A stretch of 64,000 nt of DNA from a virus: the IMG/VR virus record IMGVR_UViG_3300025132_008118; one strand, written 5' to 3'. The position numbers were made by a program, and so were the translations under genes. Positions 7,552-39,479 of this stretch are shown here, one piece after another. How positions within the stretch are numbered: position 1 is the first letter of the stretch; the number at the start of each line of letters is the position of its first letter. The notes beneath the pieces are model-generated. The model had not been told where the DNA came from, made no database searches, and worked only from the letters and a program-made list of their open reading frames with translations.

Positions 7552-9936
7552 CTAAAACCCTCCAGTATAATCAGCTGAAGCTGGTCCTGAATATGTTTCA
7601 GCGTTGGTAGCTGCTCCATAGGTCGCTGCACTTGACAATGTTTTAGAATATGTTTCGTCAATAGTTATACCACTTTTTTGAGTATTAAATTGTGGTGAAG
7701 CAGGAACTCTTTGATCGCTATTGATACCATTATTTTTAGCTGAATTACGCACACTTTGATTACCATCAGTTAACGTTAAAGGTAGATTATTAAATGTATG
7801 AGTATGTGGATAAGTTGCAATTGTATCAGCTATCGGTATACCGGTCTGGGTACCACCGAACACTGGTACAGTAGCTGAACCAGGCCCATCTGTCCAAAAA
7901 TAGTCTACGTACCCGATAATAGCTCCTTGTACAGTTTGTCCTAATACTTGGGTTGTATTTGTTACTTGCGTTTCAGCCGGTGCAGTTACATGTTGTAAAT
8001 AAGTTTCTCCTTCTACTGATAAACCTCCACCAATTATTACGTTCTTATTTACCCCAAGACTACTATCTACTAAAACTTGTCTTTGTCTTTTATTACGTAG
8101 TTTTAAAATTTCTGCACTTATATTAATTACTTTAGCATCTAAATTAATTTCATTTTCCGAACCAATGTTAACTTGTTGACCAGCTACGTTAGTAATGCTA
8201 CCAGATATATTAGTTGGTCCGTATGATTTTAGATTAATACCACCAGCACCTACCATAACATTATACCTATTATTAACATTTAAATTATATGTACCACCGG
8301 GTAAATCTTGAACATCAACATATTCAAGTAACGGACCAGAATCACTATTAACATAAGTAGCTTTACTACCTACAAGAACTTCATTGTTTATTAGTTTACC
8401 AATTGGATCGAATCTAATACTACCGTAATCATTCATTACTGTTCCAATATTTTCTAATTTATTTTTACTAATTTCAATTATTTCACTACCACCAAGACCG
8501 AAATCTCTTTCTTTAATCATTAAATCAGCTTGAACTTTTGTTATTTCTTCACTTAAATTTTTGTCTTCTGGTTTCCAATCACCGTCTTGAGTTGATAGAC
8601 TCTTACCTTTCCCATTACTGAACGTATTACCTGATTCATCAGGCCAATCATCATCAGTAGTACCTATATTTGAACCAGGTGGGGATTTAGGTTCGGTTCC
8701 TGTTGATAACACCTTAAGGTTATTATCATAATAAGGGGCTTGACCACCGTTAAAGGTTCCTGATATATTTAATTCTGGAAAACCGGAACCAGCAAATGTA
8801 TTTATATTGTTTAAACCAAAATATTTTTTAGAGTTAGTAACAGGAAAATCAGCAAACGACCCAGACCTTTTTTGGTCAATGCTATTAAGTCTTAAAATAA
8901 TATCACCATTTGAGGTAACATTATTATTTTCAGTTCTTTTTATATCAAACAATTGTTTTATATCTTGTATTACACCAAAAGCTTGCTTCCACTTATCAAA
9001 GAATGCATCGTTTAAATTACCAATTTTTTTATACTTATCTCGTAAAACAATTTCATCATAATTTTTACCAGTAAATTCATTTTTGAACCCTTTAACAGTA
9101 TTGAATTCATCATTAATAACAAGCTTTTGATTATTTTTAGTAGCTAGCTCTGAATTGGTATTATTATTAAACTCTTTAAACGAACCAGAATAATGGGTTA
9201 ATTTTATTTTTTCATTATGATCAGTATTGTTTATTTCAAAAGTACCTCCTTTTTGATTTAAAACATATTTGTTCCTATAAGTTTTTACGTTATAATCTTC
9301 TTCAGTAGAACTACTATCATAATTTTCATATTTTCCAGGGTAATCTACTTCACTATCGTATATACCCTGCCAATCATCTTTACCAAATGATGTACCTATT
9401 AAGACAGGAAACTGAGTATTACCATCTCTGAAAAATACATAAACATGGGCACCGACGCTTGGAATACCAAATGAGCCTTTTGCTTTATTAGAGTAAGTAT
9501 TAGGTTTATAGTTGAAAGAGTATGGATTTATATTATTAACATTATTACTATTATCACTAAAAGCATCACTTAATCTAAACATACTTTGATCATATATTTC
9601 TCCAGTCGAAGCCGAACCATCTGCACTTAAATTTGCAAAAGCATTTGTATCTGATACAGTAGCTTTATTGGTATAATTATTATATCGTTTAGATGTATTT
9701 TCACTTGTTAATGGGCAGCTAACTTCCGCCCATGGTAATATGGTCTTTAATTTAGCCATTATAGGTTGGAGTTGACCATCTATAGACTTAAAGTATTTAT
9801 CAGTATTATCTTGTACCCAATTTTCATATACTGTAGGTGATAAATGAGGCACAAATACTTTAACCCTGCCTCTTTTTTTAGGGTCATTATTTTGGACTAC
9901 TATACCCAAATATATACTATTAAATTCTTTTTCCAT
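7552..9936 (-). CDS. gp5: Baseplate hub/central spike, gp5/VgrG-like OB-fold protein
   Basis: YLGIVVQNNDPKKRGRVKVFVP and IPSVGAHVYVFFRDGNTQFPVLIG OB-fold motifs, followed by beta-helix-like repeats. Confidence 0.8.
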   Translation of the reverse strand: MEKEFNSIYLGIVVQNNDPKKRGRVKVFVPHLSPTVYENWVQDNTDKYFKSIDGQLQPIMAKLKTILPWAEVSCPLTSENTSKRYNNYTNKATVSDTNAFANLSADGSASTGEIYDQSMFRLSDAFSDNSNNVNNINPYSFNYKPNTYSNKAKGSFGIPSVGAHVYVFFRDGNTQFPVLIGTSFGKDDWQGIYDSEVDYPGKYENYDSSSTEEDYNVKTYRNKYVLNQKGGTFEINNTDHNEKIKLTHYSGSFKEFNNNTNSELATKNNQKLVINDEFNTVKGFKNEFTGKNYDEIVLRDKYKKIGNLNDAFFDKWKQAFGVIQDIKQLFDIKRTENNNVTSNGDIILRLNSIDQKRSGSFADFPVTNSKKYFGLNNINTFAGSGFPELNISGTFNGGQAPYYDNNLKVLSTGTEPKSPPGSNIGTTDDDWPDESGNTFSNGKGKSLSTQDGDWKPEDKNLSEEITKVQADLMIKERDFGLGGSEIIEISKNKLENIGTVMNDYGSIRFDPIGKLINNEVLVGSKATYVNSDSGPLLEYVDVQDLPGGTYNLNVNNRYNVMVGAGGINLKSYGPTNISGSITNVAGQQVNIGSENEINLDAKVINISAEILKLRNKRQRQVLVDSSLGVNKNVIIGGGLSVEGETYLQHVTAPAETQVTNTTQVLGQTVQGAIIGYVDYFWTDGPGSATVPVFGGTQTGIPIADTIATYPHTHTFNNLPLTLTDGNQSVRNSAKNNGINSDQRVPASPQFNTQKSGITIDETYSKTLSSAATYGAATNAETYSGPASADYTGGF

Positions 9937-11029: not shown

Positions 11030-11063
11030 TTGATATACCATTTTCTGTCTATATAATTATAGT
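11030..11063 (+). promoter_or_regulatory. Sigma70-type promoter TTGATA-N16-TATAAT-N6-ATG (leaderless) of the dpdA-kinase-queF operon
   Basis: TTGATA 11030-35, TATAAT 11052-57, ATG 11064. Confidence 0.7.
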
Positions 11064-11855
11064 ATGTTAGTATCTCATGAAAGTCCGATTAGTATTTTAG
11101 ATAAATCTAAGTTGTATAATGATTACGATTATGCTCTTGTACATTTATTTGAAACCCAACCCAAGTATTATGACTATTTTAAGAATAGTGTAAAAATAGG
11201 TAGAGAAGTTCTCTTAGATAATAGTATTTTTGAACTTGGTGAATCTTTTGAACCAGGTAAATTTGCTAAATATGTAAAAGAACTTAAACCTTCTTATTAT
11301 ATTGTACCTGATGTTTTAGAAGATGGCTATGCAACTATTAAAAGTTTTCATGAGTTTACTAATAAGTATACCAATCTACCTGGTTTAAAGATAGGAGCAG
11401 TTCAAGGTAAGACATATGATGAAATAGTAGATTGTTATAATTATATGTCAGAAAATGCTGATTATATTGCAATTAGTTTCGACTTTAGCTATTATATTGT
11501 AACCGGTAAAGGTAAATCAAAACTAGAAAGGTGGTGCGATGGTAGACGTAGATTAATAGAACAGTTAAAGAAAGATGGTATTTGGAATAATCAGAAACCT
11601 CATCATCTATTAGGTTGTTCATTTGCTAAAGAGTTTAAAAACTACGTAGGGGATAAAACCATTAGGTCAGTAGATACCTCTAACCCGGTGGTTGCTGGTA
11701 TTAAGGAACTTAGATATACTGGTAATCTAGGATTAAATGAAAAGCCTTCAATTATGTTGGCTGATTTAATTGATCACGAAGTTACAGATACACAGATGGA
11801 AGACATAGAATATAACGTTAACTGTTTTAAAGATATTATTGACCATGGTAATTAG
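11064..11855 (+). CDS. dpdA: DpdA-like TGT-fold 7-deazaguanine transglycosylase/transferase
   Basis: TGT-like motifs LLDNSIFE, YIVPDV, KPHHLLG and VDTSNP; adjacent to queF; DpdA subclass not determinable by eye. Confidence 0.65.
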   Translation: MLVSHESPISILDKSKLYNDYDYALVHLFETQPKYYDYFKNSVKIGREVLLDNSIFELGESFEPGKFAKYVKELKPSYYIVPDVLEDGYATIKSFHEFTNKYTNLPGLKIGAVQGKTYDEIVDCYNYMSENADYIAISFDFSYYIVTGKGKSKLERWCDGRRRLIEQLKKDGIWNNQKPHHLLGCSFAKEFKNYVGDKTIRSVDTSNPVVAGIKELRYTGNLGLNEKPSIMLADLIDHEVTDTQMEDIEYNVNCFKDIIDHGN

Positions 11856-12393
11856 TTTTACGGGAGCTCAAAGTACCGGTAAGTCTACTTTACTTACTAA
11901 ATTGCAAACTGATGAAAGATTTCGTAAGTATAATTTTGTACCGGAAATAACTAGAGGTTTAAAAAAGAAATATAATCTAGATATCAATGAAGATGGTAAT
12001 GAATTTACTCAATTATTAACTGTAAATAGTCACTTATATAATTATTTTGACTTTAAAGGTAAAGATGTGGTATTAGATAGATGTATTTTAGATGGATTGA
12101 TATATACAACATATCAATATCATACAAAAAAAGTAAGTAAAGAAATATATAATTATAGTGAGTATCTCTTTAAGAAATTGATTGGTGAATTGGATATTAT
12201 ACTATATACAGAACCTGATATCCCCTTAGTAGATGATGGAGAGCGTAGCATAGATAAAGAGTTTCGCGATATTATAGTTAACTTATTTGAAGAGGCAATT
12301 AATCATTATAATATTAATGTAATTAGGTTGAGTGGTTCAGTTGATAATCGTATGAAAACAATTTATAATATAGTAGATAATTATGGCAAATAA
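11839..12393 (+). CDS. P-loop nucleotide kinase (NadR/Ttd14 AAA_28-like)
   Basis: ISFTGAQSTGKSTL Walker A, VLDRCILDGLIY, YTEPDIPLVDDGER. Confidence 0.75.
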   Translation: MTMVISFTGAQSTGKSTLLTKLQTDERFRKYNFVPEITRGLKKKYNLDINEDGNEFTQLLTVNSHLYNYFDFKGKDVVLDRCILDGLIYTTYQYHTKKVSKEIYNYSEYLFKKLIGELDIILYTEPDIPLVDDGERSIDKEFRDIIVNLFEEAINHYNINVIRLSGSVDNRMKTIYNIVDNYGK

Positions 12394-13312
12394 AGAATTA
12401 GATAATAGTAGAATTAGTAAGCATTTAGGTCAAACGTCTCAATATAAGAGTGCGTATGATTCTGAGTTGCTTGTAAGAGAACCTCGTAGTAATAATCGAG
12501 TATATTTAAATATATTCGATGATGATTTACCTTTCGTTGGATCTGATACATGGAATGCATATGAATGTTCATTCCTTCTAGATAATGGTCGCCCTGTAAC
12601 AGGCGTTGTGAAGTGTGTATATTCATGCAGTAGTAAATATATCGTTGAAAGTAAGAGTATTAAATTATACTTTAATTCATTTAATATGACTAAAATGGCT
12701 GCTGATAAAGATAAAGCTGTAGTTGCATTCGAAGATACTGCAAGTAAAGATCTAAGTAGATTATTGCAGACTGATGTTCAGGTTAAATTTCAAGATGGTG
12801 ATCGTGTTAATAAGAAATTCGATAGTCCTAATATGGAATGGGATATTGATGATTTTGATAATGTAGATTTACTACAAGATGATAAAGATTTTATATATAC
12901 TCAATATACTGAGGACCCTAGCCTATTAGAAGGTGTTATTCGTGGAAGAGATTTAGAGCAAAAGTTTTATTCAGGTCTATTAAAAAGTAATTGCCGTGTT
13001 ACTTCACAACCAGATTGGGGTGATGTATTTATCTATATTAAATCTAAGACTGCTATTGATGCTCATAGTATTAAGAATTATGTTGTATCATATAGAGATG
13101 AGTGCCATTTTCATGAAGAGATATGTGAATGCTTTTATAAAAGATTAAAAGATGCTTTCGATCCTTCTGAACTATTAGTAATGTGTTTATATGCTCGTAG
13201 AGGTGGTATTGATATTAACCCTGTAAGAGCTTCAAGTAAAGATCTTATCGAAAAGTACGCTGCTAATCTAATTGATCCTGAAGCAGTTCATATTAAAACC
13301 TCTAAGCAATAA
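12383..13312 (+). CDS. queF: NADPH-dependent preQ0 reductase QueF (bimodular, E. coli type)
   Basis: WNAYE, IVESKSIKLYFNSFN, LLKSNCRVTSQPDWG, HFHEEICE, YARRGGIDINP. Confidence 0.93.
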   Translation: MANKELDNSRISKHLGQTSQYKSAYDSELLVREPRSNNRVYLNIFDDDLPFVGSDTWNAYECSFLLDNGRPVTGVVKCVYSCSSKYIVESKSIKLYFNSFNMTKMAADKDKAVVAFEDTASKDLSRLLQTDVQVKFQDGDRVNKKFDSPNMEWDIDDFDNVDLLQDDKDFIYTQYTEDPSLLEGVIRGRDLEQKFYSGLLKSNCRVTSQPDWGDVFIYIKSKTAIDAHSIKNYVVSYRDECHFHEEICECFYKRLKDAFDPSELLVMCLYARRGGIDINPVRASSKDLIEKYAANLIDPEAVHIKTSKQ

Positions 13313-13386
13313 TGGATGTATTTATGACATGGGGTGCAGTGTTATGTATAATATTTTATGCATACTATATAGCATTTTATAATTAA
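13312..13386 (+). CDS. 24-aa hydrophobic micropeptide (not in ORF track)
   Basis: MDVFMTWGAVLCIIFYAYYIAFYN*; ATG overlaps the queF stop (TAATG). Confidence 0.4.
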   Translation: MDVFMTWGAVLCIIFYAYYIAFYN

Positions 13387-13422
13387 ACAAAAAGAGACCT
13401 GGCTCGTAATGAACCAGGTCTC
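13385..13422 (-). terminator. Intrinsic terminator downstream of gp23
   Basis: GAGACCTGG...CCAGGTCTC stem followed by TTTTTGTTT on the minus strand. Confidence 0.8.
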
Positions 13423-13447: not shown

Positions 13448-14935
13448 TTAGCCGAAGTACACCGAGTTAGTACCTGGTGTGAACGCTTCGCCGAGTGACT
13501 TAACAATGATAACGTGGTAGTAGAGATTTGCTCCGAAGATATTGTCTACGACACCATAACGGGTAAGCAAGCCTACACGTGGCGCGAAGTCATTAGGACC
13601 AATTGTTCTCTGAACCATAACTGGAATGTATGGGCAGTAGATGATACCAGTGTCATAAAACTCTGGACCCTTGTAACCAAGTAATGCATATTCAGGAGCA
13701 TCATTCGCAGAGGTTGTAAGACTGTTACCAATCGTTTGACCTTCTGTGCGAGTATCTCTATATACATTAAAACGACCACCAAGATTACCGATCTTTGCAA
13801 CGCCTACAGGTTGTGTATTGACATTACCTTGGACTGGTACCCACTGGAATTCAGGGAGCATTTCCAAGATAGCGCAAACACGAGGTGTTGCAACGATGAA
13901 GTTAGCTGCACCACGGCGATTTCTCACTGCGATACGGTTAGCTTCTACGATTAATCTTTGATAGAAGTCGCGGTTACGTTCTACTAGCCAACGGCCATCT
14001 GCAGAAGCAGGGCTCCATGTAGAGTACCCAACTCCGGTACCTGCATTAAGAGCAACCTGAATCATTCTCATAAGCATTTCACGGTCGATTTCGGCCTGAA
14101 TTTCATACGACATAGCGTTTGTCAATTCAGTATCGATATCGATACCATTCATATTCTTAAGATCCTGTTCAAGTTCAACTGACCAACGTGCGCCTAAGCG
14201 ACGTGTACCAGCTTCAACTGCTGTCTTTTCGAAAGAAACTTCCATAGTAGGGATATTACCCGTTACTTCGAAGTTTCTAAGAAGAGCAGCTACACCATCA
14301 TCTTTCGCGTTAAAAGCGAAGTCTGTGTTACCAGAAAGGTAACCAGCAGATGTACCGGTGTAATTAGTATAAAGCTCTTGGTAACCAGCTTCTGCATTCG
14401 CAGCAGTTGCTAATGCATTAACCTGGCCAGATGGAGAGTTACCAGCTGCTGACTTACCATCGATGCCATCACCAAGTGTTTCACCTGAGTAACGATAACG
14501 AAGAGCAAATGCAAGGCCAACTGGACCCGCCATTGGTTGAACACCAACGATTTCATTTGTAATTAACTCGGGAAAAGTACGACGAATCATTGGGATAAGA
14601 ATCTTTGGAAGACGGAAGTCATTCGTAGCATATGTGTCCGAACCAGGTGTACCGCTAGCAACGGAACCAGCACCGATAGATGCAGCACCACCAAGTGATC
14701 CATCTCTACCAGCTAAGTTACCATTAATGCCTGTACTACCATAGTTAGGTCCAGCTTCTTTCAAACACCATGTTTCTTGATTTTCAAGAAGCATTGCAGT
14801 GTTTAAACGAGTATGACTATCTTCAATCGCTGCAACACTCTTTGAAGTGTAATCCAGAACTGGAGCCCACTTTTCAAGTAGTTGCGACGCACGATTCTCA
14901 TCGATATAAGCCTGTGAAGGGCGTATTGAATTCAT
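13448..14935 (-). CDS. gp23: Major capsid protein, T4 gp23-like
   Basis: LLEKWAPVLD, IVGVQPMAGPVGLAFALRY, RRLGARWSVELEQDLK, YCPYIP motifs. Confidence 0.97.
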   Translation of the reverse strand: MNSIRPSQAYIDENRASQLLEKWAPVLDYTSKSVAAIEDSHTRLNTAMLLENQETWCLKEAGPNYGSTGINGNLAGRDGSLGGAASIGAGSVASGTPGSDTYATNDFRLPKILIPMIRRTFPELITNEIVGVQPMAGPVGLAFALRYRYSGETLGDGIDGKSAAGNSPSGQVNALATAANAEAGYQELYTNYTGTSAGYLSGNTDFAFNAKDDGVAALLRNFEVTGNIPTMEVSFEKTAVEAGTRRLGARWSVELEQDLKNMNGIDIDTELTNAMSYEIQAEIDREMLMRMIQVALNAGTGVGYSTWSPASADGRWLVERNRDFYQRLIVEANRIAVRNRRGAANFIVATPRVCAILEMLPEFQWVPVQGNVNTQPVGVAKIGNLGGRFNVYRDTRTEGQTIGNSLTTSANDAPEYALLGYKGPEFYDTGIIYCPYIPVMVQRTIGPNDFAPRVGLLTRYGVVDNIFGANLYYHVIIVKSLGEAFTPGTNSVYFG

Positions 14936-28440: not shown

Positions 28441-28905
28441 TTATTTATCCCAAGGAAACTGTAACCAGCGAGTAGTATATAAAGTATTACCGGAAATAAT
28501 GTTATTATTGAATTCAGAACCATCTCTTTTTACTAAACTAGCATACAAAATATCATCACTATTAACTTTATAATTGCGATTTAATATAGAATTTACTGCA
28601 GTAAAAGTTCGCCCACTATCATTAATATCATCTACAACTAATATTTTTGAGCCTTCTTTAATACTATCAGGTCGTTGATATACTATTGTATCGAGATACT
28701 TACCATTCTCTTGCCTAGTATTAATTCCGATATTATAAAGCGTCTTTATATCTAATTTATAACTTAACATAGCTCCAGGTATTAAACCACCTCTGCCTAA
28801 GGCTGCAATGCAATCAAATTGCATATTTTTATTTTTTATTTGTTCAGCTAAACATTCAGTTAAAAAATCTATATTATTCCAAGTTAATTTTAATATATCC
28901 TCCAC
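28441..28905 (-). CDS. Type I purine phosphoribosyltransferase (gpt/hpt-like)
   Basis: GRGGLIPG, PRPP-binding ILVVDDINDSGRT, C-terminal WLQFPWD. Confidence 0.85.
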   Translation of the reverse strand: MEDILKLTWNNIDFLTECLAEQIKNKNMQFDCIAALGRGGLIPGAMLSYKLDIKTLYNIGINTRQENGKYLDTIVYQRPDSIKEGSKILVVDDINDSGRTFTAVNSILNRNYKVNSDDILYASLVKRDGSEFNNNIISGNTLYTTRWLQFPWDK

Positions 28906-31481: not shown

Positions 31482-31685
31482 TATAGCACTCATAGTGTTC
31501 CTTACCTCTTGTAAGACTACCCCAGGTACCGAGCGCAATATAGATCTAGATATAAGTGTTCCAGATTCTCAGTTCCTGATTGAGTGGTAATTTATTTTAT
31601 TAGAGAGAGATAACTCTCGTTCGGTTACCGGTATTTTTATTAATTTAAAGGAAAAACTCCTTGAAATAATGATTAAATATTGGTC

Positions 31686-31913
31686 ATGAATGAATTAATA
31701 TCAAACATAAAGAGCGGTCTAACCGCTATCACAGATATAGGACTCGGTGTAGTTTCTATTTCAATATTAGCAGAAATATTATTCGGTAAAGGAGCTCTAT
31801 TCGGAGCAGACGTTATCGGTAATGTTACTAACATAGTTTCTACTATAGGGGGATCTAATGGTCTCATCGGACTAGTAGCGCTATTTGTCTTAGCAGTACT
31901 ATTAAAGAAGTAA
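31686..31913 (+). CDS. Small membrane protein
   Basis: Two hydrophobic segments; TAAATA-N6-ATG. Confidence 0.65.
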   Translation: MNELISNIKSGLTAITDIGLGVVSISILAEILFGKGALFGADVIGNVTNIVSTIGGSNGLIGLVALFVLAVLLKK

Positions 31914-31950
31914 AAATCTATACGAGGCTCCGCGGTAAGTATAGTAATCA

Positions 31951-31984
31951 AAAGTCGTTCCTATTACAGGGGCGGCTTTTTTTT
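31951..31984 (+). terminator. Intrinsic terminator
   Basis: AAAGTCGTTCCT-ATTAC-AGGGGCGGCTTT plus T-run. Confidence 0.75.
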
Positions 31985-32141
31985 GGGAACGTTCCTCTTT
32001 ATATATAAATTTTTCTCGCGTCAAAAATTTTAAAAGGCATGGGGCCTCCCAAGGCCCGAGACCCGCTCTCTATATAGGAATTCTCCCACGGTAACTTCTC
32101 TCAGCGGGGTGGGTTGCTGCGCAGCAAAAGCTGCCGCAGAC

Positions 32142-32172
32142 AAAAAGAGGCCGCTCTATATAGAACGACCTC
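32142..32172 (-). terminator. Intrinsic terminator closing the early-gene array
   Basis: GAGGTCGTTCT-ATAT-AGAGCGGCCTC-TTTTT on the minus strand. Confidence 0.8.
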
Positions 32173-32201
32173 TCCAACAACAACACACTATCTAATTAGA
32201 C

Positions 32202-32405
32202 CTACATTGCAGGCTCTAAAATGCTATCTATATAAGCTCTGGCTTTACTACTTAACTCTACATCTGGGTCATCCATCATCCTAATTACTTCATCGGCATC
32301 TATACGATATTCGGTACCAGAGCGCTCACTATAAAGGATAAATCTCTTCTTATCGTAGTCAGTAAGCCCGTGGTCGGGGAGGTATATACGATACTTAGGC
32401 TTCAT
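32202..32405 (-). CDS. Hypothetical early protein
   Basis: 67-aa ORF, visibly GC-richer than its surroundings. Confidence 0.65.
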   Translation of the reverse strand: MKPKYRIYLPDHGLTDYDKKRFILYSERSGTEYRIDADEVIRMMDDPDVELSSKARAYIDSILEPAM

Positions 32406-32406
32406 C

Positions 32407-32694
32407 TTACTGGTTGCAGAAGGCTACCTTCTTCTCCATTTCGTATAGCTTCTTATCGCCTGCAGTAATGAAATCGGGCTTGATGCCGAATGCCTCGCGC
32501 ATGCGCTCGAGGGTATCAGCATAGTTATCATTGACCACGCCCATCACAGAGACCATCTCTGGGTTGAACTGCTCGGAGAGGGACTCGATGAGAGCTAGCT
32601 TAGAGCTCTCGTTAGCGGCTGCACGGCAGATGACGTCGACGGCATTATATAGCTCGCCAACGGTTACGGTATCGGTGTTGTTTAGGTTATCCAT
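32407..32694 (-). CDS. Hypothetical early protein
   Basis: 95 aa; GGAAC promoter; GC-rich third codon positions. Confidence 0.75.
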   Translation of the reverse strand: MDNLNNTDTVTVGELYNAVDVICRAAANESSKLALIESLSEQFNPEMVSVMGVVNDNYADTLERMREAFGIKPDFITAGDKKLYEMEKKVAFCNQ

Positions 32695-32978
32695 ACTACT
32701 ATTATATCGCAGTTCCTCTTACTGGGGGCGCCCCCTTCGGGGGCTTAGCCGCAGAGGGGGTGGATTGAAATGGGAACTCAGATATAATTTAGATATGAGA
32801 CCAGAGGGTCTGGGAAGGACTACCTCGAGGAAGGGGCCTCAGCGCCTGCGTTCCTCTTTCTTCCGGATTAAGGAACTGCCGTATAATTATATAGAGTGCG
32901 GAGACCCCTCACGTGTAGGCGTTTGCAGGAGGAGGAAAAATTTTGAGGAGATACTAACCTTTATACAAATTCTCTCTC

Positions 32979-33335
32979 TCACCCGTTAAAGCATCCTGGC
33001 TTGACATAGTCATCATCATCCTCATCGGGTACCGGTAAGTTACAAGTTGGATCAGATGCATCATACTCTAAGTACCATCCTCTGTCTTCGTCTTTAGCAT
33101 TGTACTCGGCCACTTCATTAAATGACTCTGGTAACTTATATATCTCTGATGGCTCATTGCCTACCTCTTCTGACCTCTTTAACATATGCGAGATCTGCGC
33201 TTTTAGCTCGTCGACTACCTCTTCCGGTATTGTAACCTCTCCTTTATAGTCATGCATGATCTTTACCTCTAGAGTATTAACCAAGCATTCTAAGTGCCCT
33301 TGCAAGCATCCATATCCTTTAGCGTAATTGTCCAT
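32979..33335 (-). CDS. Hypothetical acidic protein
   Basis: 118-aa ORF in the early array. Confidence 0.65.
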   Translation of the reverse strand: MDNYAKGYGCLQGHLECLVNTLEVKIMHDYKGEVTIPEEVVDELKAQISHMLKRSEEVGNEPSEIYKLPESFNEVAEYNAKDEDRGWYLEYDASDPTCNLPVPDEDDDDYVKPGCFNG

Positions 33336-33389
33336 CTCTTATATCTCCTTCTCTCAGCACAACGTATAAATTCTTACCATGTTTCAATC

Positions 33390-33575
33390 TTAGGTAAGCT
33401 TTAATAGATTTAATACCTCTTCACTTACATCGACATCAACTTGATTACTATTAGCAAATGCTACATCAGCTGATACTGGCCCTGACCTCTGGGTTGCTAT
33501 ATCAGTAAATATAAACTGACCGTCATTAAACGTCAGGCTATATGTCTTCTCTTCTACTTCTTCTACTATATCCAT
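33390..33575 (-). CDS. Hypothetical early protein
   Basis: 61 aa; GGAAC promoter. Confidence 0.7.
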   Translation of the reverse strand: MDIVEEVEEKTYSLTFNDGQFIFTDIATQRSGPVSADVAFANSNQVDVDVSEEVLNLLKLT

Positions 33576-33596
33576 ACTACTATTATATCACTGTTC

Positions 33597-33761
33597 CTAA
33601 TTAAAGATTGCACCCAATAACAATATCACTGCTGCTATTATGGCCGAGCCCACTACAATGCATGCTGAGAAGATTACATCATTGCCTCCCTTTACCAATT
33701 CACCATCTTCTTTACTACTTTGGTATTTTGTATTTTTCTTTCGTATTTTACTGTTTGCCAT
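33597..33761 (-). CDS. 54-aa protein with C-terminal TM helix (not in ORF track)
   Basis: MANSKIRKK...VIFSACIVVGSAIIAAVILLLGAIFN*. Confidence 0.55.
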   Translation of the reverse strand: MANSKIRKKNTKYQSSKEDGELVKGGNDVIFSACIVVGSAIIAAVILLLGAIFN

Positions 33762-33857
33762 AACGCTCTTTATGTTTATAAAGGTACTGTACTATACTTT
33801 ACCTCTTACTTTTATTTAAAAATTACCTCTTTTTACTTAAAATCTAACTCTTTTTGG

Positions 33858-34214
33858 TTAGTTCTCTCTCTTATAATGGTCACGAGGTCTTTCAAATTGC
33901 TTGGAAAGCTTATCCTTTTGCTCTAATCTCTTGAAGATACCGTATATATTCTCGTCCGTATAGCCATCTTTCTTTAGTGCATCGATTACTCTTCCGGCTG
34001 GTACGTATGCATATATCGGCTTATCGTACGTCGGATCATCTGCCCATTCCTTCAATAAGTCCTCTCTTACTCGAAAGCCTCTCTTATCAAACACTGCTAC
34101 CTCTACTTGAGTATAAGGTCCTTCATCGTCCTTTGGATAGCAGTAATGAAACTCGGAGGCCTGGATAGAGATCTCTCCATCTTTATAAGGTATTGGCATA
34201 TTCAAATCTTTCAT
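33858..34214 (-). CDS. Hypothetical early protein
   Basis: 118 aa; GGAAC promoter. Confidence 0.75.
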   Translation of the reverse strand: MKDLNMPIPYKDGEISIQASEFHYCYPKDDEGPYTQVEVAVFDKRGFRVREDLLKEWADDPTYDKPIYAYVPAGRVIDALKKDGYTDENIYGIFKRLEQKDKLSKQFERPRDHYKREN

Positions 34215-34221
34215 ACTATAA

Positions 34222-34392
34222 TTATATCAAAGTTCCTAATACTTTATCGGCATCTAAGTTAACTGAAACGTATGGCTTTTTACTCCATTTGAAAGCTTCA
34301 GCATTACTTAGCGGTATCTCATTTCTAGTTCTATTGTTAACTAAAACAAAACCAAACATCAGATTAAAACTTAAGTTGTATTCATTTTCCAT
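34222..34392 (-). CDS. 56-aa early protein (not in ORF track)
   Basis: MENEYNLSFN...KVLGTLI*; own promoter; its stop lies within the next promoter. Confidence 0.65.
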   Translation of the reverse strand: MENEYNLSFNLMFGFVLVNNRTRNEIPLSNAEAFKWSKKPYVSVNLDADKVLGTLI

Positions 34393-34433
34393 ACTACTAT
34401 TATATCTAAGTTCCGTAAAAAGGTTTGAGCATT

Positions 34434-34823
34434 TTATAGAGTGCTCACCTCTTGACTCACCTCGGATTTATTATATTGTGTCGGGTGGTGCGAATTTTCT
34501 AGATAGGCCTTTACTGCATCAAATGCATCATAGCTAAAACCTCCTACATGCCAGTTAAAGATTCCTTTCCGGCAGATTGAAGCATCATAAGTCTTCCAAT
34601 CATAAATCGTAGCAGTAACGTAAGGGTTTTCGTTATCAGTAGTCTCAAACTCTAAGGTCCACTCAGTAGTTACCTTACCATCGTCAGAGGGCTCATAGTA
34701 AGTAGGCTCACCAAAAGCCTTTACCAAGTCATCATACGTTGCTTTCAAATAGGAGCTTCCAACTAAAGAAGTTCCTGAAGTATTAATCGATTGCGAATTT
34801 CTTACGTTAATTATCTTGCTCAT
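34434..34823 (-). CDS. Hypothetical early protein
   Basis: 129 aa (GKVTTEW...TIYDWK...WHVGG); GGAAC promoter. Confidence 0.75.
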   Translation of the reverse strand: MSKIINVRNSQSINTSGTSLVGSSYLKATYDDLVKAFGEPTYYEPSDDGKVTTEWTLEFETTDNENPYVTATIYDWKTYDASICRKGIFNWHVGGFSYDAFDAVKAYLENSHHPTQYNKSEVSQEVSTL

Positions 34824-34830
34824 ACTAATA

Positions 34831-35067
34831 TTATATCACAGTTCCTGTTCTGATTCTTCCGGAAGGATCATACCATCGTGCTGCTGGTTGCTTTGTAGCA
34901 GTATTTAAGTACTCTGCATTTTCCTCTTCTAAGAATGATTTATAAAACTCTGCTACCTCATCTTCAGAAAGGTAACGTAAAAGCGATTCAAGTACATACT
35001 TATTAGTCAAGATGCCATCGTCGATAGCTTCTAGGATTTGATTAGTGGTTTTTCTTGCTGTGGTCAT
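34831..35067 (-). CDS. Hypothetical early protein
   Basis: 78 aa; GGAAC promoter. Confidence 0.7.
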   Translation of the reverse strand: MTTARKTTNQILEAIDDGILTNKYVLESLLRYLSEDEVAEFYKSFLEEENAEYLNTATKQPAARWYDPSGRIRTGTVI

Positions 35068-35088
35068 AGCTATATTATATCACTGTTC

Positions 35089-35268
35089 CTAAGAGGCATT
35101 GTTAAAGAATTCTCCGGAAGAAATCATAAGTTCCTTCTCGGCTGCAGCAGTAAAATGAATACCTGCTTCATAATGCTCCTCCACATCCTCAAAAGGAATC
35201 AAATCGCCATCCTTAAACGAGATGAACTCTCCATTTTCGGTAACGTCTACTGTATCAAAAGGGCACAT
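35089..35268 (-). CDS. 59-aa acidic protein (not in ORF track)
   Basis: MCPFDTVDVTENGEFISF...FFNNAS*. Confidence 0.55.
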   Translation of the reverse strand: MCPFDTVDVTENGEFISFKDGDLIPFEDVEEHYEAGIHFTAAAEKELMISSGEFFNNAS

Positions 35269-35270
35269 AA

Positions 35271-35447
35271 CTAAAAGGGTAGTTCTAGAGGTTTTAGATC
35301 CAAGATTGAATCCTCGATGTTGTCTAGACGCTCTATTGATACCTGATGCTCGCCTCCGTCTTCATCCATAACGTATGCAAGCCCTCTTTCGGTATCGATT
35401 TCTAAAACCTCTACCCAATTTTGCTTATCTAATGTTGCTGTTTTCAT
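35271..35447 (-). CDS. 58-aa early protein (not in ORF track)
   Basis: MKTATLDKQNWVEVLEIDTERG...LELPF*; GGAAC promoter. Confidence 0.65.
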   Translation of the reverse strand: MKTATLDKQNWVEVLEIDTERGLAYVMDEDGGEHQVSIERLDNIEDSILDLKPLELPF

Positions 35448-35471
35448 ACTATAATTATATAGTAGTTCCTC

Positions 35472-35855
35472 TTACATTGCAGCTGCATGATCCGGATACT
35501 CTTCATCAGAGTAATCAGTCGGGTATTTTCCGTCATAAATTTTCTCAATATCTAAACCAAACCTCTCAAGCTCATCCTTCTTATCGTAATCATACTGAGC
35601 AGCAACAATACTTACTGCATAACTTCTTTCAGCTCCAACTTCAGCATAAGGATAAACTTTATGAAAAAATTCAGTATCCCAATAACTTAACATCTCGAAC
35701 AAAGTTTCCTTTTCAAAAGTATCCTGAATATGAATAAACCTTCTCATAGCTTTTACATCTTTAGTAGCTACTATGTTTATCATTCTAGAGTAACGATTAA
35801 CATCCTCAAGTTTAGAGTTAATCGATTCGGTAAGTTGCATTATCAATTTATTCAT
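35472..35855 (-). CDS. Hypothetical early protein
   Basis: 127 aa; GGAAC promoter. Confidence 0.75.
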   Translation of the reverse strand: MNKLIMQLTESINSKLEDVNRYSRMINIVATKDVKAMRRFIHIQDTFEKETLFEMLSYWDTEFFHKVYPYAEVGAERSYAVSIVAAQYDYDKKDELERFGLDIEKIYDGKYPTDYSDEEYPDHAAAM

Positions 35856-35876
35856 ATCTATATTATATCACCGTTC

Positions 35877-36125
35877 CTAACTCCAATGAGAGTAGCTGTA
35901 AGGCTGTAAAGCGGCTCCAGGCAACGTGTAGCCTAGCGGTCGCTTGACCTCCTCTTGCGGTAAAGAATTAAGACTTACGTCTGCTTTAACTGAGAAGAAC
36001 GTCGTCGAGAGCTTATAATCCTGCGCCTGCTCTCTAGTAATATCGAGGCACTCTCCAGTACGAGTATTAGTCAATTGGTAGAGATTGCCGTAGCCTTTGT
36101 AATCGATAATATATTTAATTTTCAT
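35877..36125 (-). CDS. Hypothetical early protein
   Basis: 82 aa; GGAAC promoter. Confidence 0.7.
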   Translation of the reverse strand: MKIKYIIDYKGYGNLYQLTNTRTGECLDITREQAQDYKLSTTFFSVKADVSLNSLPQEEVKRPLGYTLPGAALQPYSYSHWS

Positions 36126-36157
36126 ACTACAATTATATCACAGTTCCCTTTTCCGGA

Positions 36158-36502
36158 TTAGTACAACCCAAATACGAGCTCTGCATCTACTTCATTGCAA
36201 GGAGCTTCTAACTCCTTCCAGCCGAAGGACTCACACAACCACTGCGTACCTTCCACCTCAACTACATCCCCTACTGAAAGAGAATAGTTATCAAGAGCTC
36301 TAAACTCTTGAGCAATAGAACGTTCCCAATCTTCGAGGAGCTCCTCAGGAGCATTCAAGATATGGAACATCTGCTCTGCTCCTTCCTTTCCGGACTTTAC
36401 TTCCTTAGAGGAAGTCTTATAAACTTCCGTACGAGTTCCTTTATAATCAGCACCATCGCCGAATTGATCTCGTGTACTTGTTGGTCGAATAATTCTTATC
36501 AT
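36158..36502 (-). CDS. Hypothetical early protein
   Basis: 114 aa (YSLSVGDVVEVEGTQWLCESFGW); GGAAC promoter. Confidence 0.75.
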   Translation of the reverse strand: MIRIIRPTSTRDQFGDGADYKGTRTEVYKTSSKEVKSGKEGAEQMFHILNAPEELLEDWERSIAQEFRALDNYSLSVGDVVEVEGTQWLCESFGWKELEAPCNEVDAELVFGLY

Positions 36503-36523
36503 ACTACTATTATATAACGGTTC

Positions 36524-36949
36524 CTAAAAATTTATAACGAGAGAATTTGCTATATCAGCAGGAGATTCAAACTCATAGTTATTCACTGCATTTTCTTCAG
36601 CTTTTTCAGCCTCGTATTGTGCATTAGCCCTTTCGATGCATTCAGATGCAAGGCGGTCCCACTCTTCAGCAGTCTCATCTGACCAATTAGTCCAACGAGG
36701 ACGAATGCCATTTTCAGACTTATAGCAGTCCATATACTCTTCCCAAGCCTTAGCTTGGTCCCACTCGGCAGGAGTCAGGCAGCGCTCACCTTTGGTGTAA
36801 TGCTCGCAATAGTGAAGAATATCAGCTTCATCATATGAAGCATAACCGCGAAACTCTCCTTCCGGAGCAGCTTCTGCCCAAGCTTTTGACTCGGCACATA
36901 ATGCGTTAACGTGATTGCGAAGATCTTCTGTAATAGTAATGTTTTGCAT
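36524..36949 (-). CDS. Hypothetical early protein
   Basis: 141 aa (YKSENGIRPRW); GGAAC promoter. Confidence 0.75.
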   Translation of the reverse strand: MQNITITEDLRNHVNALCAESKAWAEAAPEGEFRGYASYDEADILHYCEHYTKGERCLTPAEWDQAKAWEEYMDCYKSENGIRPRWTNWSDETAEEWDRLASECIERANAQYEAEKAEENAVNNYEFESPADIANSLVINF

Positions 36950-36971
36950 ACTACTATTATATCAAAGTTCC

Positions 36972-37067
36972 TTAAAGATTACCAATTAACCACCAAATTA
37001 TAAAACATAATAGACCAGCAGATAAAGCTGCTGATACTACCATTAAAATTTCAGATAAGTATGCCAT
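36972..37067 (-). CDS. 31-aa single-TM peptide (not in ORF track)
   Basis: MAYLSEILMVVSAALSAGLLCFIIWWLIGNL*. Confidence 0.5.
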   Translation of the reverse strand: MAYLSEILMVVSAALSAGLLCFIIWWLIGNL

Positions 37068-37073
37068 GTGTTC

Positions 37074-37235
37074 CTATTTAAATGTTCTACTAAACTCAAA
37101 GACTATAACAGCTACGCAGAGAAAATGCGCAAATGTTCCGGGATCGACCATTCCTAATCCAATATCGTTACCTGCCGCAGCAAGATTTAACAATAGTGTT
37201 GCTACTACGAATACCTTATATAAATGTTCTAACAT
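37074..37235 (-). CDS. 53-aa two-TM protein (not in ORF track)
   Basis: MLEHLYKVFVVATLLLNLAAAG...FLCVAVIVFEFSRTFK*. Confidence 0.55.
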   Translation of the reverse strand: MLEHLYKVFVVATLLLNLAAAGNDIGLGMVDPGTFAHFLCVAVIVFEFSRTFK

Positions 37236-37241
37236 AATTTA

Positions 37242-37517
37242 TTATGAAAAGCAATCGACTGCTTCCTCAATATCGTTATCAATCTCGTTATTCAATCGAG
37301 CTCGTTTTGCTTCCATCTCCTCATTTACATCTTCGAGATACATTTTATAATCATCAATCTTGTCGTTGATATGATCAACATCACCCATCAAGTCATCAGC
37401 CATTCTTCGAATGCGCCCATCCTTTGCAAAGGATTCAGCCCACATCAATCGATCCAAAGTTTCACTTACTATGTTTTGAAACTCAGACGCTTCCTTTATT
37501 CTCTTCTTAATCTTCAT
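37242..37517 (-). CDS. Hypothetical coiled-coil early protein
   Basis: 91 aa; GGAAC promoter. Confidence 0.7.
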   Translation of the reverse strand: MKIKKRIKEASEFQNIVSETLDRLMWAESFAKDGRIRRMADDLMGDVDHINDKIDDYKMYLEDVNEEMEAKRARLNNEIDNDIEEAVDCFS

Positions 37518-37564
37518 GTACTTATTATATCACTGTTCCCCTATGAGAGCCACGTTTAGTTAAT

Positions 37565-37588
37565 AAAAAAGGGTAATGTGATACCCTT
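37565..37588 (-). terminator. Intrinsic terminator
   Basis: AAGGGTA-TCACAT-TACCC-TTTTTT on the minus strand. Confidence 0.6.
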
Positions 37589-37662
37589 ACGTTTAATGTA
37601 CCAAATTGAAGAGCCCGAGGCTGGACCTAATCTCACCGAAATGCCTCGAGCCCTTCTTTTTG

Positions 37663-37890
37663 TTAAGCTGATACAATCTTATTGTTACGCAATGCTCGTG
37701 CCATTTCACGAGGCGCAACCTTCTCCCATGTTCCGGAGAACTGATTCTTCATTACCAGACGCTTTGCCTGATGACCTACGACGGAGAATGCTCCTGTTAC
37801 TGGATTTCGCTCAAGCATTACGTTGAACAAATTCGGGTTACGAGTTGCAGTTTCTACACCACGACGACTACTTTTACTTTTATTTTTCAT
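37663..37890 (-). CDS. Small basic early protein
   Basis: 75 aa, K/R-rich; GGAAC promoter. Confidence 0.7.
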   Translation of the reverse strand: MKNKSKSSRRGVETATRNPNLFNVMLERNPVTGAFSVVGHQAKRLVMKNQFSGTWEKVAPREMARALRNNKIVSA

Positions 37891-37913
37891 AATTTAATTA
37901 TATCACTGTTCCT

Positions 37914-38159
37914 TTATAAATCTTTATCTTCTAATTCTAAACCTGATTCAATAATCATTTTGTATGCCATTTCGAAATGACGTATTAAATCTTTATCGAA
38001 ATACTGCTTATATGCAACTAATTTTGTATTAGGAGATTTAACTCTCATATTATAATAACGATAGAACTCTTTGTGCTCAATAGTTTCCTCAAAGTTAAAA
38101 TGATCTATGTAAGTATGGTCTCCTCTTTTCTGAACTAACTTATAATCTCCTGCGTACAT
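37914..38159 (-). CDS. Hypothetical protein
   Basis: 81 aa; coupled to the upstream ORF. Confidence 0.65.
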   Translation of the reverse strand: MYAGDYKLVQKRGDHTYIDHFNFEETIEHKEFYRYYNMRVKSPNTKLVAYKQYFDKDLIRHFEMAYKMIIESGLELEDKDL

Positions 38160-38362
38160 TAGAACTGCTTCATTACACTACGACATCCTCTACGAGGTAC
38201 ATAATACTTTTTATTACGAGCATAGCTTTCAGCAGACATAACCTGCACACTACCACCAGTCTTATGATCAAACGTCATAACGCCTCGTACCTTTTCAGTA
38301 ATACGAGGAGGAGGATTATCTAATCCTAATATCTTTCTAACCTCTTTACTTTTAATTTCCAT
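38159..38362 (-). CDS. Hypothetical early protein
   Basis: 67 aa; GGAAC promoter. Confidence 0.7.
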   Translation of the reverse strand: MEIKSKEVRKILGLDNPPPRITEKVRGVMTFDHKTGGSVQVMSAESYARNKKYYVPRRGCRSVMKQF

Positions 38363-38621
38363 ACTCTTATTATATCATCGTTCCTAAAAAAGAGTTTAAT
38401 TAAATCTAACAGGCCCTTCCCATTCTGCTATGGGTCTTCCTCATTTATTTCAGGAGGGGTTCGGGCTTTCTCCGCCGGAGTCCGAAGACTTTAATATTCC
38501 ATTGGCATAGTATTTAATTAAACTGCAGAAAATCAAAGGTATTCGCCTGGTCGGGCTTTTTCGAAGGAATACCAGCTCCGTTTTTCTTGTTTATTTCGTG
38601 CACGCTTGATCGTCATCAAAG

Positions 38622-38747
38622 TTATGTAAAAAGAACTGCTATTAAAGCAAATAGATAGATAATATTTATGTCTCTCCCGCTATAAAAATCTAAAACTAAG
38701 CTACCTGCTAATGCTAAAATTGTGAATGCTTTGAATAATCTCATCAT
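38622..38747 (-). CDS. 41-aa two-TM early peptide (not in ORF track)
   Basis: MMRLFKAFTILALAGSLVLDFYSGRDINIIYLFALIAVLFT*; GGAAC promoter. Confidence 0.65.
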   Translation of the reverse strand: MMRLFKAFTILALAGSLVLDFYSGRDINIIYLFALIAVLFT

Positions 38748-38759
38748 ACTACTATTATA

Positions 38760-38951
38760 TCACTGTTCCTCTTTTAACCAATCTTTTTTAAACAGCTCTT
38801 TATCAATAGCTTCTACAACCTTTACTGCATCCTTCATCGTTTTCCATCTAGAGCCCCATTTCTGGCAAGATGGTCCATTATTCAAATCAGCATTTTCCTC
38901 CCATTTATCTTTACAAGCTTGTACATATTTTTCTAGAATATTGTTACTCAT
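38760..38951 (-). CDS. Hypothetical protein
   Basis: 63 aa; coupled start/stop. Confidence 0.6.
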   Translation of the reverse strand: MSNNILEKYVQACKDKWEENADLNNGPSCQKWGSRWKTMKDAVKVVEAIDKELFKKDWLKEEQ

Positions 38952-39175
38952 TACCGTTCTAAAATTACAAAGTCGCCAAACTCTTTATCAAAAACATTCA
39001 ATAGGTTTTCATAATCCCCTGACTGCATATCATTGAGAATTTTATCTATTTCAGGTTTATCATAACACAACTCTTTTGCAAAACGTTTAGCTGTACCCAT
39101 TAACGCAAATGCATTACCATCAGGACCAGTTAGGTCAATTACTATTTCATGAGGTATAGTTTTTTGTCTAATCAT
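38951..39175 (-). CDS. Hypothetical protein
   Basis: IDLTGPDGNAFALMG...SGDYENLL; a small-protein pattern I associate with phages. Confidence 0.75.
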   Translation of the reverse strand: MIRQKTIPHEIVIDLTGPDGNAFALMGTAKRFAKELCYDKPEIDKILNDMQSGDYENLLNVFDKEFGDFVILER

Positions 39176-39376
39176 TTACAATAAAATTAGCGTTATAATA
39201 AAACCTATCCCTATTGTTAGGAAGAGTACTGCGAATGCTAAATCTTTTACCTTCTGATCTTCATAGCTCGCAGCTCCTAAGTATACTTTTTTCTTTTTTC
39301 TTTTCATACTATCACTATATATTCGTTCACCCTTTACGCCGTGATAAACAATTCTATTTCTTTTATAATATCCCAT
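39176..39376 (-). CDS. Basic protein with C-terminal TM helix
   Basis: 66 aa; GGAAC promoter. Confidence 0.65.
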   Translation of the reverse strand: MGYYKRNRIVYHGVKGERIYSDSMKRKKKKVYLGAASYEDQKVKDLAFAVLFLTIGIGFIITLILL

Positions 39377-39402
39377 ACTATAATTATATCTAAGTTCCTA
39401 AA

Positions 39403-39479
39403 TGGTGGGCCCGGTCGGACTTGAACCGACGACCAAACGATTATGAGTCGTTTGCTCTGACCAACTGAGCTACAGGCCC
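39403..39479 (-). tRNA. tRNA-Ile2(CAT) (lysidine type; Met not fully excluded)
   Basis: GGGCCTGTAGCTCAGTTGGTCAGAGC-AACGA CT CAT AA TCGTT-GGTTCAAGTCC...ACCA. Confidence 0.9.

Follow-up and report, generated by a model that had tools for sequence, protein, structure and literature searches.

Exchange of every guanine for a 7-deazaguanine is known only from phages that encode the 7-deazaguanine transglycosylase DpdA3. The DpdA3 subfamily was defined in Flavobacterium phage immuto, phage CP220 and the phiST-type phages, and its known products are 2′-deoxy-7-amido-7-deazaguanosine (dADG) in CP220, in which replacement of G is complete, 2′-deoxy-7-deazaguanosine (dDG) in phiST, and formyl-dPreQ1 (fdPreQ1) in immuto (PMC10516641). 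No activity of DpdA3 has yet been demonstrated in vitro or in Escherichia coli: the protein alone was inactive in E. coli, and DNA has not been shown experimentally to be the substrate of any DpdA3 (PMC10516641). Here we analyze a 64,000-nucleotide stretch of DNA (IMG/VR virus record IMGVR_UViG_3300025132_008118, hereafter the window) from an uncultured marine T4-like myovirus with a G+C content of about 30 to 35%, in which a DpdA3 gene (ORF1), a small P-loop kinase gene (ORF2) and queF (ORF3) form an overlapping cassette. We conclude that the kinase is no chance neighbor but a component of the cassette that is both conserved and specific.

Like the window, immuto is a large T4-like phage with orthologous genes for DpdA3 (51% identity), the kinase (34%) and QueF (45%) in the same order, and it encodes a homolog of a phosphoribosyltransferase (PRT) found in the window. 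Unlike immuto, the window has no DpdN formyltransferase, such that plain dPreQ1 is predicted in place of formyl-dPreQ1, and it has no adjacent QueD-QueE-PRT-FolE-PRA-PH block, the Que genes being dispersed and a GMP-reductase-like gene having been added in the clade of the window. CP220 (Firehammervirus), also a T4-like myovirus, has DpdA3 (48%) directly followed by an orthologous AAA_28 kinase (37%), but it lacks QueF (its product is ADG), carries a fusion of HD and AAA_33 domains upstream of DpdA3, and has a second kinase paralog beside a dUTPase gene. In Cellulophaga phage phiST (CGPG_00065, DpdL), DpdA3 is distant (27% identity) and directly adjoins a small gene with a P-loop kinase fold; the kinase of phiST, however, is of the AAA_18/AAA_33 type, the cluster includes MazG and neither QueC nor QueF, and the product is 7-deazaguanine. 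The DpdA/DpdB/DpdC system of Salmonella Montevideo (7ui4; PMC10164549) likewise uses a base-exchange enzyme with the fold of tRNA-guanine transglycosylases (TGTs) and the same catalytic motif, and its exchange needs a separate ATP-using protein (PMC10164549). In contrast to the phage proteins, the Salmonella DpdA is 413 to 436 residues long, DpdB has a ParB fold and not a nucleotide-kinase fold, and less than 1% of G is modified, site specifically and by an action on DNA that has been shown.

The dpdA3-kinase-queF cassette

Three overlapping open reading frames (ORFs) on the plus strand were confirmed at the location given in a preliminary description of the window (coordinates in Table 1), and its identification of them as DpdA-like, a kinase and a full QueF proved right, the first being more precisely a member of the DpdA3 subfamily. 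ORF2 can start at ATG or at an upstream TTG, and the ATG is the likely start because homologs of ORF2 begin MVISF or MIISF. With that start, the ORF1/ORF2 and ORF2/ORF3 junctions each overlap by exactly 11 nt, a layout typical of coupled genes that fits translational coupling. The cassette is a plus-strand island within a minus-strand structural module, between baseplate and head genes. A gp5-like baseplate hub gene and a 363-amino-acid (aa) gene without assigned function lie on one flank, and the major capsid gene followed by scaffold and prohead protease genes lies on the other. The preliminary description had the three genes read from one promoter, and a promoter-like site is indeed present upstream of ORF1; such sites, however, are about as frequent in this AT-rich region as expected by chance (20 found versus 18.8 expected from shuffled sequence), and the claim of a single promoter could not be upheld. 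The sole strong hairpin closes the 3′ side of the island as terminator of the convergent capsid gene, and as an A-run precedes it on the plus strand, it may act bidirectionally.

ORF1 is 50.8% identical to immuto DpdA3 (gp206) and 48% identical to CP220 gp056, with weaker matches in phiST-type Cellulophaga phages, one Chryseobacterium phage and some Bacillus phages. A profile built around ORF1 matched immuto at an E value of 3e-114, CP220 at 3e-88 and phiST DpdA3 (CGPG_00065) at 8e-26, and the family comprises 3,967 mostly marine clusters at 90% identity (E < 1e-5), with 1,629 representatives at 50% identity. ORF1 matched no model of Pfam (including the TGT model) or NCBIfam, PHROGs returned unknown-function families only, and the sole sequence match in the PDB was DpdA 7ui4, a marginal one (E = 0.065) over the catalytic motif. 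Sequence-only family searches failed or were marginal, and the fold was settled by structure only. An AlphaFold model made with 94 diverse sequences (mean pLDDT, the model's per-residue confidence, of 97.3) matched the Zymomonas TGT in Foldseek at an E value of about 3e-9, and VIA-align gave Z scores of 18.0 with archaeosine TGT, 17.3 with bacterial TGT and 17.1 with DpdA 7ui4, over about 230 of the 263 residues and at a root mean square deviation of about 3.1 Å. The model thus indicates that ORF1 is a minimal TGT barrel, in agreement with the TGT fold claimed earlier for it.

Residues D52 (in LDNS), E57, D83 (in PD), R161, H181, D204, S206 and P208 are invariant in the ORF1 family, and Q114 (in VQG) is 87% conserved. 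The ORF1 segment HLLG...DTSNP aligns with HLLG...SIDSTTP of DpdA 7ui4, which places D204 at the nucleophile position. By motif resemblance, and not by residue-level superposition, we take D52, D83 and Q114 to be the counterparts of TGT residues D102, D156 and Q203. Sequence homology, the TGT fold, the catalytic residues and the co-occurring 7-deazaguanine genes together lead us to conclude that ORF1 belongs to the DpdA3 subfamily. An argument from charge and from the Zn site for a nucleotide rather than a DNA substrate was dropped: the DpdA3 family has a median isoelectric point of 5.5 and lacks the CxCxxC cluster, but the DNA-acting DpdA1 of phage 9g (isoelectric point of 5.6, likewise without the cluster) shares both features. 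DpdA3 also occurs naturally fused to a DpdN-type formyltransferase (long forms P0256 and P0297, 447 aa; P0277, 475 aa; and P0264, 586 aa, were examined), and P0264 has a 320-aa N-terminal extension without assignment. Among the remaining long forms are some with a NUMOD3 homing-endonuclease motif, with DUF3310 or with unassigned extensions that have no P-loop.

ORF3 matched QueF_N (4e-31) and QueF (3e-21) in Pfam, both above the cutoffs, and Vibrio cholerae QueF (3bp1) at an E value of 1e-40, with the motifs ESKS.KLY (for the substrate), KSNC..QPDWG (containing the catalytic Cys) and FHE kept. The score against TIGR03138 was 238 bits, below the bacterial equivalog cutoff of 293, as expected of a diverged phage copy. 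The conserved domains and motifs indicate that ORF3 is an intact bimodular preQ0 reductase. Probing with immuto proteins and with Que genes from close relatives revealed neither folE nor queD, queE or queC in the 64-kb window, as the preliminary description had also noted. Two relatives, G001 (185 kb, 88% complete) and G002 (221 kb, 100% complete), whose ORF1 proteins are 83% and 65% identical to that of the window, carry QueC, QueD and a QueE-like radical-SAM gene 45 to 90 kb from the cassette; QueC and QueD are also present in a third relative, G004, and type I FolE was not found in G001 and G002. It had been proposed that preQ0 comes from the host or from genes elsewhere, and since the relatives carry QueC, QueD and the QueE-like gene, a source elsewhere in the genome is most likely. 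DpdN is absent from the clade of the window, and the predicted base is therefore plain dPreQ1, which would be a fourth chemical outcome for DpdA3 and one not described before for a DpdA3 phage.

The kinase and its association with DpdA3

ORF2 matched Pfam AAA_28 (PF13521) at 1e-16, with 62.1 bits against a cutoff of 27, and its orthologs are CP220 gp057 (37% identity) and immuto gp203 (34%). It also matched PHROG 2107, labeled thymidylate kinase, at 1e-30, and the immuto and CP220 copies are annotated likewise; no match was obtained to the thymidylate kinase models of Pfam and NCBIfam. A profile of 47 homologs gave weak matches in the PDB, to thymidylate kinase (7e-4) and then to deoxynucleoside kinase (dNK) and NadR, all scoring alike. 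The folds nearest to the ORF2 model (pLDDT of 90.4) in Foldseek were the ribosylnicotinamide kinase (RNK) domains of NadR (6gzo and 6gyf; TM score of 0.70 to 0.74), Mycoplasma deoxyadenosine kinase and thymidylate kinases, and among viral models ORF2 was closest to CP20 and CP220 proteins. Thirty-five positions are invariant in the family, including the Walker A motif GAQSTGKS, DRC at the DRY/ERS position and a Gly/Arg-rich LID-like segment. The model and these residues indicate that ORF2 is a small-molecule nucleoside or nucleotide kinase. The protein had been called monophosphate-kinase-like, of which the kinase is confirmed and the monophosphate substrate is no more than possible, as the fold is equally near the nucleoside kinases (NadR RNK, dNK) and the thymidylate kinases. 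Homology to gp1, the deoxynucleoside monophosphate (dNMP) kinase of T4, was rejected (hhalign probability of 0.8%), and ORF2 may work like gp1 despite the lack of homology. An assignment as a DpdB-type ATPase was also rejected, as ORF2 has a nucleoside/nucleoside monophosphate kinase fold and not the ParB-like fold with a DGQQR motif.

The gene order DpdA3-[DpdN]-kinase-QueF was found in 65 related IMG/VR loci wherever the sequence suffices, with the kinase directly upstream of QueF. DpdA3 lies 7 kb away in 4 of these loci, and there the kinase is still with DpdN and QueF. The order in immuto is DpdA3, a hypothetical gene, DpdN, kinase and QueF, and in CP220 DpdA3 is followed by the kinase. 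Moreover, a search of 50,697 phage records for homologs of the kinase at E < 1e-18 yielded none outside DpdA3 phages (Firehammervirus and immuto), and as a control the kinase was absent from the examined 50 kb of the 56.7-kb genome of DpdA1 phage 9g, which modifies about 25% of G. The AAA_28 kinase was not found genome-wide in distant DpdA3 lineages. In phiST and MA9V-3, an AAA_18/AAA_33 P-loop kinase (32% identical between the two, E = 1e-17) lies directly upstream of DpdA3; BSTP12_039, the neighbor upstream of DpdA3, is a remote full-length relative of ORF2; and CP220 gp055, likewise upstream of DpdA3, has an HD domain fused to an AAA_33 domain. Synteny, distribution among phages and non-orthologous replacement thus support the earlier view that the kinase is embedded in the system. 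The word kinase appears nowhere in the paper that defined DpdA3 (PMC10516641), and a literature search found no other paper on phage DpdA3 or on a kinase in such clusters. A search for longer or fused forms of the kinase (Rosetta stone approach) found none, and a predicted complex of DpdA3 with the kinase scored 0.27 against a mark of 0.32, which counts neither way.

Further members of the kinase family lie outside such cassettes. CP220 gp006 (L091:5407-5940, plus strand) is a second AAA_28 paralog directly upstream of the dUTPase gene, in a module with topoisomerase, primase and clamp-loader genes, and from this context the family appears to have been duplicated within DNA-precursor metabolism. 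In the 221-kb relative G002, a 272-aa paralog (L075:319-1137, plus strand; profile E = 3e-20) lies about 300 nt upstream of QueD and has about 65 additional C-terminal residues without assignment. Distant AAA_28 homologs are found in about 38 Streptomyces phage records (about 130 kb), where they overlap an FkbM-type methyltransferase gene at its end, as in gp95-gp96 of Streptomyces phage Karimac (L090:6204-7615), where MazG lies 5 kb upstream. The kinase and the methyltransferase could be another nucleotide-modification pair. The Streptomyces phage homologs failed as an independent test of the DpdA3 association, as their neighbor is this methyltransferase and not a TGT-fold protein.

Routes to guanine replacement

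The genes of the cassette and its relatives point to a core pathway. QueC-, QueD- and QueE-type genes elsewhere in the genome would make preQ0, QueF would reduce preQ0 to preQ1, and DpdA3 would swap guanine for preQ1 at the N-glycosidic bond by TGT-type aspartate chemistry, with plain dPreQ1 as the expected product. We consider this core very probable. By analogy with other DpdA3 phages, dPreQ1 probably replaces most or all G.

For the stage at which the exchange takes place, we favor a pre-replicative route, to which we give close to an even chance. DpdA3 would act on a free guanine deoxynucleoside or deoxynucleotide, such as dGMP from the breakdown of host DNA; the embedded kinase would phosphorylate the 7-deaza product into the deoxynucleoside triphosphate pool; and the phage polymerase would incorporate it. 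Only tentatively do we carry the proposal further: DpdA3 would then be the first TGT-superfamily enzyme to act on a free deoxynucleoside or deoxynucleotide, yielding 7-deaza-dGTP together with the kinase, and the PRT and the GMP-reductase-like enzyme of the window might, as a second-order matter, consume the guanine set free, by way of GMP to IMP.

Several observations are consistent with the pre-replicative route. A small-molecule kinase, drawn from at least two families, always goes with DpdA3. The other known complete base replacements in phages, namely, hydroxymethylcytosine in T4, the base Z (2-aminoadenine) in S-2L and hydroxymethyluracil in SPO1, are pre-replicative and involve a dedicated or permissive dNMP kinase. 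In T4 (dCTPase, dCMP hydroxymethylase and gp1) and S-2L (MazZ, PurZ and DatZ), as in the proposed mechanism, a change at the monophosphate level is followed by phosphorylation and polymerization and leads to complete replacement, and T4 gene 1, like the kinase gene of the window, is embedded among structural genes. These systems differ from the window in that gp1 has no sequence relationship to ORF2, in that a canonical-nucleotide hydrolase was not found in the clade of the window, and in that the modifying step here would be a base exchange. In DpdA3 phages, replacement of G is complete, DpdA3 alone is inactive in E. coli, and the ADG nucleoside has been reported in infected cells (PMC10516641). 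Nucleotide pyrophosphohydrolases are present in other DpdA3 clusters (MazG in phiST and gp208, of the PRA-PH type, in immuto), CP220 has the HD domain, and paralogs of the kinase are found near DNA-precursor or Que genes.

Other observations weigh against the pre-replicative route. Everything on the role of the kinase is drawn from gene context, and the nearness of the ORF2 fold to nucleoside kinases and thymidylate kinases alike does not reveal its substrate. No TGT-superfamily enzyme is known to use mononucleotides as substrates, and in structure ORF1 resembles the DNA insertase DpdA no less than it does the tRNA TGTs. No fusion of DpdA3 with the kinase occurs among the long forms examined, the fusions found being with DpdN, and the distant AAA_28 kinases of Streptomyces phages occur without deazaguanine genes. 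MazG, HD and PRA-PH hydrolases that might clear dGTP were not recognizable in five relatives within the clade, including the 100%-complete 221-kb one. Nor are the proposed accessory enzymes universal in DpdA3 phages: a PRT is present in phiST and immuto and absent from CP220, BSTP12 and MA9V-3, and the GMP-reductase-like gene is absent from immuto, CP220 and phiST. Finally, the authors who defined DpdA3 proposed post-replicative insertion (PMC10516641). The preliminary description had read the kinase as a sign of a pre-replicative route, as proposed for phages with extensive replacement of dG. The route is plausible but, being drawn from gene context in a clade with no recognizable dGTP-clearing hydrolase, is not established, and the appeal to earlier proposals does not match the literature, in which post-replicative exchange was proposed for all DpdA families (PMC10516641).

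If the published model applies here, DpdA3 swaps G for preQ1 in newly made phage DNA and the kinase is either a general (deoxy)nucleoside monophosphate or nucleoside kinase that supplies precursors, as a functional analogue of T4 gene 1, or an ATP-using helper, which we regard as a realistic possibility that falls short of an even chance. The structural match of ORF1 to DpdA 7ui4, also its sole sequence match in the PDB, is consistent with that model, as is the lack of a dGTP-clearing enzyme in the five relatives, and the requirement of bacterial DpdA for ATP hydrolysis by DpdB (PMC10164549) makes a helper role for the kinase conceivable. ORF2, however, folds as a small-molecule kinase, with a pocket in which many residues are invariant, and does not have the ParB fold of DpdB, and the filling of one position by two unrelated kinase families is easier to reconcile with a catalytic step than with a dedicated protein partner. 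A general role could be argued from T4 gene 1, which likewise sits among tail and baseplate genes, and from the failure to find a gp1 homolog in G001, G002, immuto, CP220 and phiST, of which the kinase may be the general one. Yet a general kinase would be expected in T4-like phages without DpdA3, whereas strong homologs are confined to DpdA3 phages, and the second paralog of CP220, in the replication/dUTPase module, leaves the DpdA3-linked copy free for a special task. Moreover, complete, sequence-independent replacement of G in double-stranded DNA by a 260-aa enzyme is, to our knowledge, without precedent.

Two further alternatives change the role of one gene each. The kinase could be a nicotinamide riboside kinase for NAD salvage, loosely linked to the cassette, for instance through the NADPH demand of QueF or through shared early expression. 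The NadR RNK domains are the best PDB matches of ORF2 in Foldseek, ORF2 belongs to AAA_28, JGI assigns the name nicotinamide riboside kinase to several homologs from metagenomes, and the kinase always adjoins QueF where QueF exists. We nevertheless consider NAD salvage improbable: ORF2 is only about 20% identical to NadR, which scores little better than deoxyadenosine and thymidylate kinases; the window ORFs scanned yielded neither an NMN adenylyltransferase nor another NAD gene (ORFs of less than 100 aa and several others were outside the scan); and CP220 keeps the kinase beside DpdA3 though it has no QueF, its kinase paralog adjoining dUTPase. Alternatively, ORF1 could act on tRNA, inserting preQ1 or queuosine at position 34 of tRNAs with GUN anticodons, including the phage tRNA-Asn(GUU), which is encoded in the window, and its TGT fold does match tRNA enzymes as well as DpdA. 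That reading is highly unlikely in our judgment, as ORF1 has none of the additional domains and insertions that tRNA TGTs possess (263 aa versus 360 to 580 aa, with about 230 residues aligned), is not matched by the Pfam TGT model, and is 48 to 51% identical to the DpdA3 proteins of phages with complete G replacement in DNA (PMC10516641).

The constant presence of a kinase that the DpdA3-defining paper (PMC10516641) did not discuss gives a concrete reason for the failed reconstitution of DpdA3. If the free-nucleotide route is correct, the catalytic range of the TGT superfamily would be wider than known, and complete G replacement would arise by polymerization, contrary to the published post-replicative model. 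It would also provide an enzymatic route to 7-deaza-dGTP analogues for sequencing and PCR of GC-rich DNA and for restriction-resistant DNA. Because the family comprises about 4,000 clusters (90% identity) in marine metagenomes, fully G-substituted DNA may be common in ocean T4-like phages, and this would affect the recovery of such phages by sequencing.

Candidate accessory genes and other features of the window

The PRT of the window lies between a gp15-like tail gene and small genes. Its best NCBIfam match was a xanthine PRT model (71 bits, below the cutoff of the model), and it is 26% identical to immuto gp211, which is located inside the immuto Que cluster. In several IMG/VR loci, PRT-like genes are likewise found at a distance of about 7 kb on the upstream side of DpdA3. 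The GMP-reductase-like protein had its best NCBIfam match in NF003966 (268 bits against a cutoff of 344), and its gene is kept in G001 (84% identity) and G002 (59%). It is possible that the PRT is an accessory of the pathway and that the GMP-reductase-like protein, as another accessory, drains the guanine nucleotide pool. A precedent for 7-deazapurine nucleotides made via phosphoribosyl pyrophosphate is presumably given by toyocamycin and sangivamycin synthesis in Streptomyces, in which we take the PRT ToyH and the GMP reductase ToyE to act on preQ0-derived nucleotides and in which such enzymes accompany genes for preQ0 synthesis. That pathway differs from the window in that it leads to free nucleosides as secondary metabolites and involves no TGT-fold enzyme, and the PRT and reductase genes of the window are far from the cassette. 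The GMP-reductase-like gene forms a conserved trio with two downstream genes, for a 313-aa protein and a 274-aa sulfotransferase-domain protein, and the three are also adjacent in the 185-kb relative (84, 74 and 85% identity) and the 221-kb relative (about 59 and 58%).

Table 1. Positions of the cassette genes, flanking signals and other features in the 64,000-nucleotide window
Feature	Position	Strand	Basis or remark
ORF1, DpdA3-subfamily TGT-fold guanine/7-deazaguanine transglycosylase, 263 aa	11064-11855	+	Homology and predicted fold
ORF2, AAA_28 (NadR-RNK/deoxynucleoside-kinase-like) small P-loop kinase	11845-12393 (ATG, 182 aa) or from 11839 (TTG, 184 aa)	+	Pfam and model
ORF3, bimodular (type II) QueF, NADPH-dependent preQ0 reductase, 309 aa	12383-13312	+	Both Pfam domains
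Promoter-like site, TTGATA-16 nt-TATAAT	11030-11057	+	11/12 consensus matches; 6 nt before ORF1 start codon
12-bp GC-rich hairpin, terminator of convergent capsid gene	13394-13422	−	T-run on minus strand
gp5-like baseplate hub	7552-9936		Flank of cassette
Major capsid protein	13448-14935	−	Flank of cassette
Xanthine/guanine-type PRT	28441-28905	−	Pfam Pribosyltran, 7.5e-10
GMP-reductase-like protein, 326 aa	55164-56144	−	IMPDH/GMPR domain, 1e-50
Conserved trio with GMP-reductase-like gene	53436-56144	−
Four tRNA genes (Met-CAT, Arg-TCT, Asn-GTT, Leu-TAA)	39403-42169	−
Region of higher G+C	31500-43900		G+C of 0.35-0.43
ORF of 1602 aa	48631-53439	+	No Pfam match
ORF of 1385 aa	18916-23073	−	No Pfam match
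DUF932 protein (333 aa) and leucine-rich-repeat protein (399 aa)	43907-46441	− and +	Divergent
Two consecutive genes ending in Peptidase_S74	62-1668	+

The window carries genes for a T4-type portal protein, a gp15-like protein, a gp4 homolog and a class I ribonucleotide reductase. The capsid protein shares only 33% identity with its cyanophage counterparts, and a megablast search of the cassette against cultured phages gave no match. Of the four tRNAs, tRNA-Asn(GUU) belongs to a class that normally carries queuosine at position 34, here in a phage predicted to make preQ1. The tRNA genes lie in the region of higher G+C content (about 0.30 elsewhere), the rest of which holds short ORFs only, mostly of less than 170 aa. 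The longer of the two listed ORFs without a Pfam match is located where the GC skew is positive, which is the reverse of most of the window. Leucine-rich-repeat proteins, one of which is encoded divergently from the DUF932 protein, are unusual in phages. At the left end of the window, the Peptidase_S74 intramolecular-chaperone domain that ends each of two consecutive genes is typical of tail fibers and spikes.

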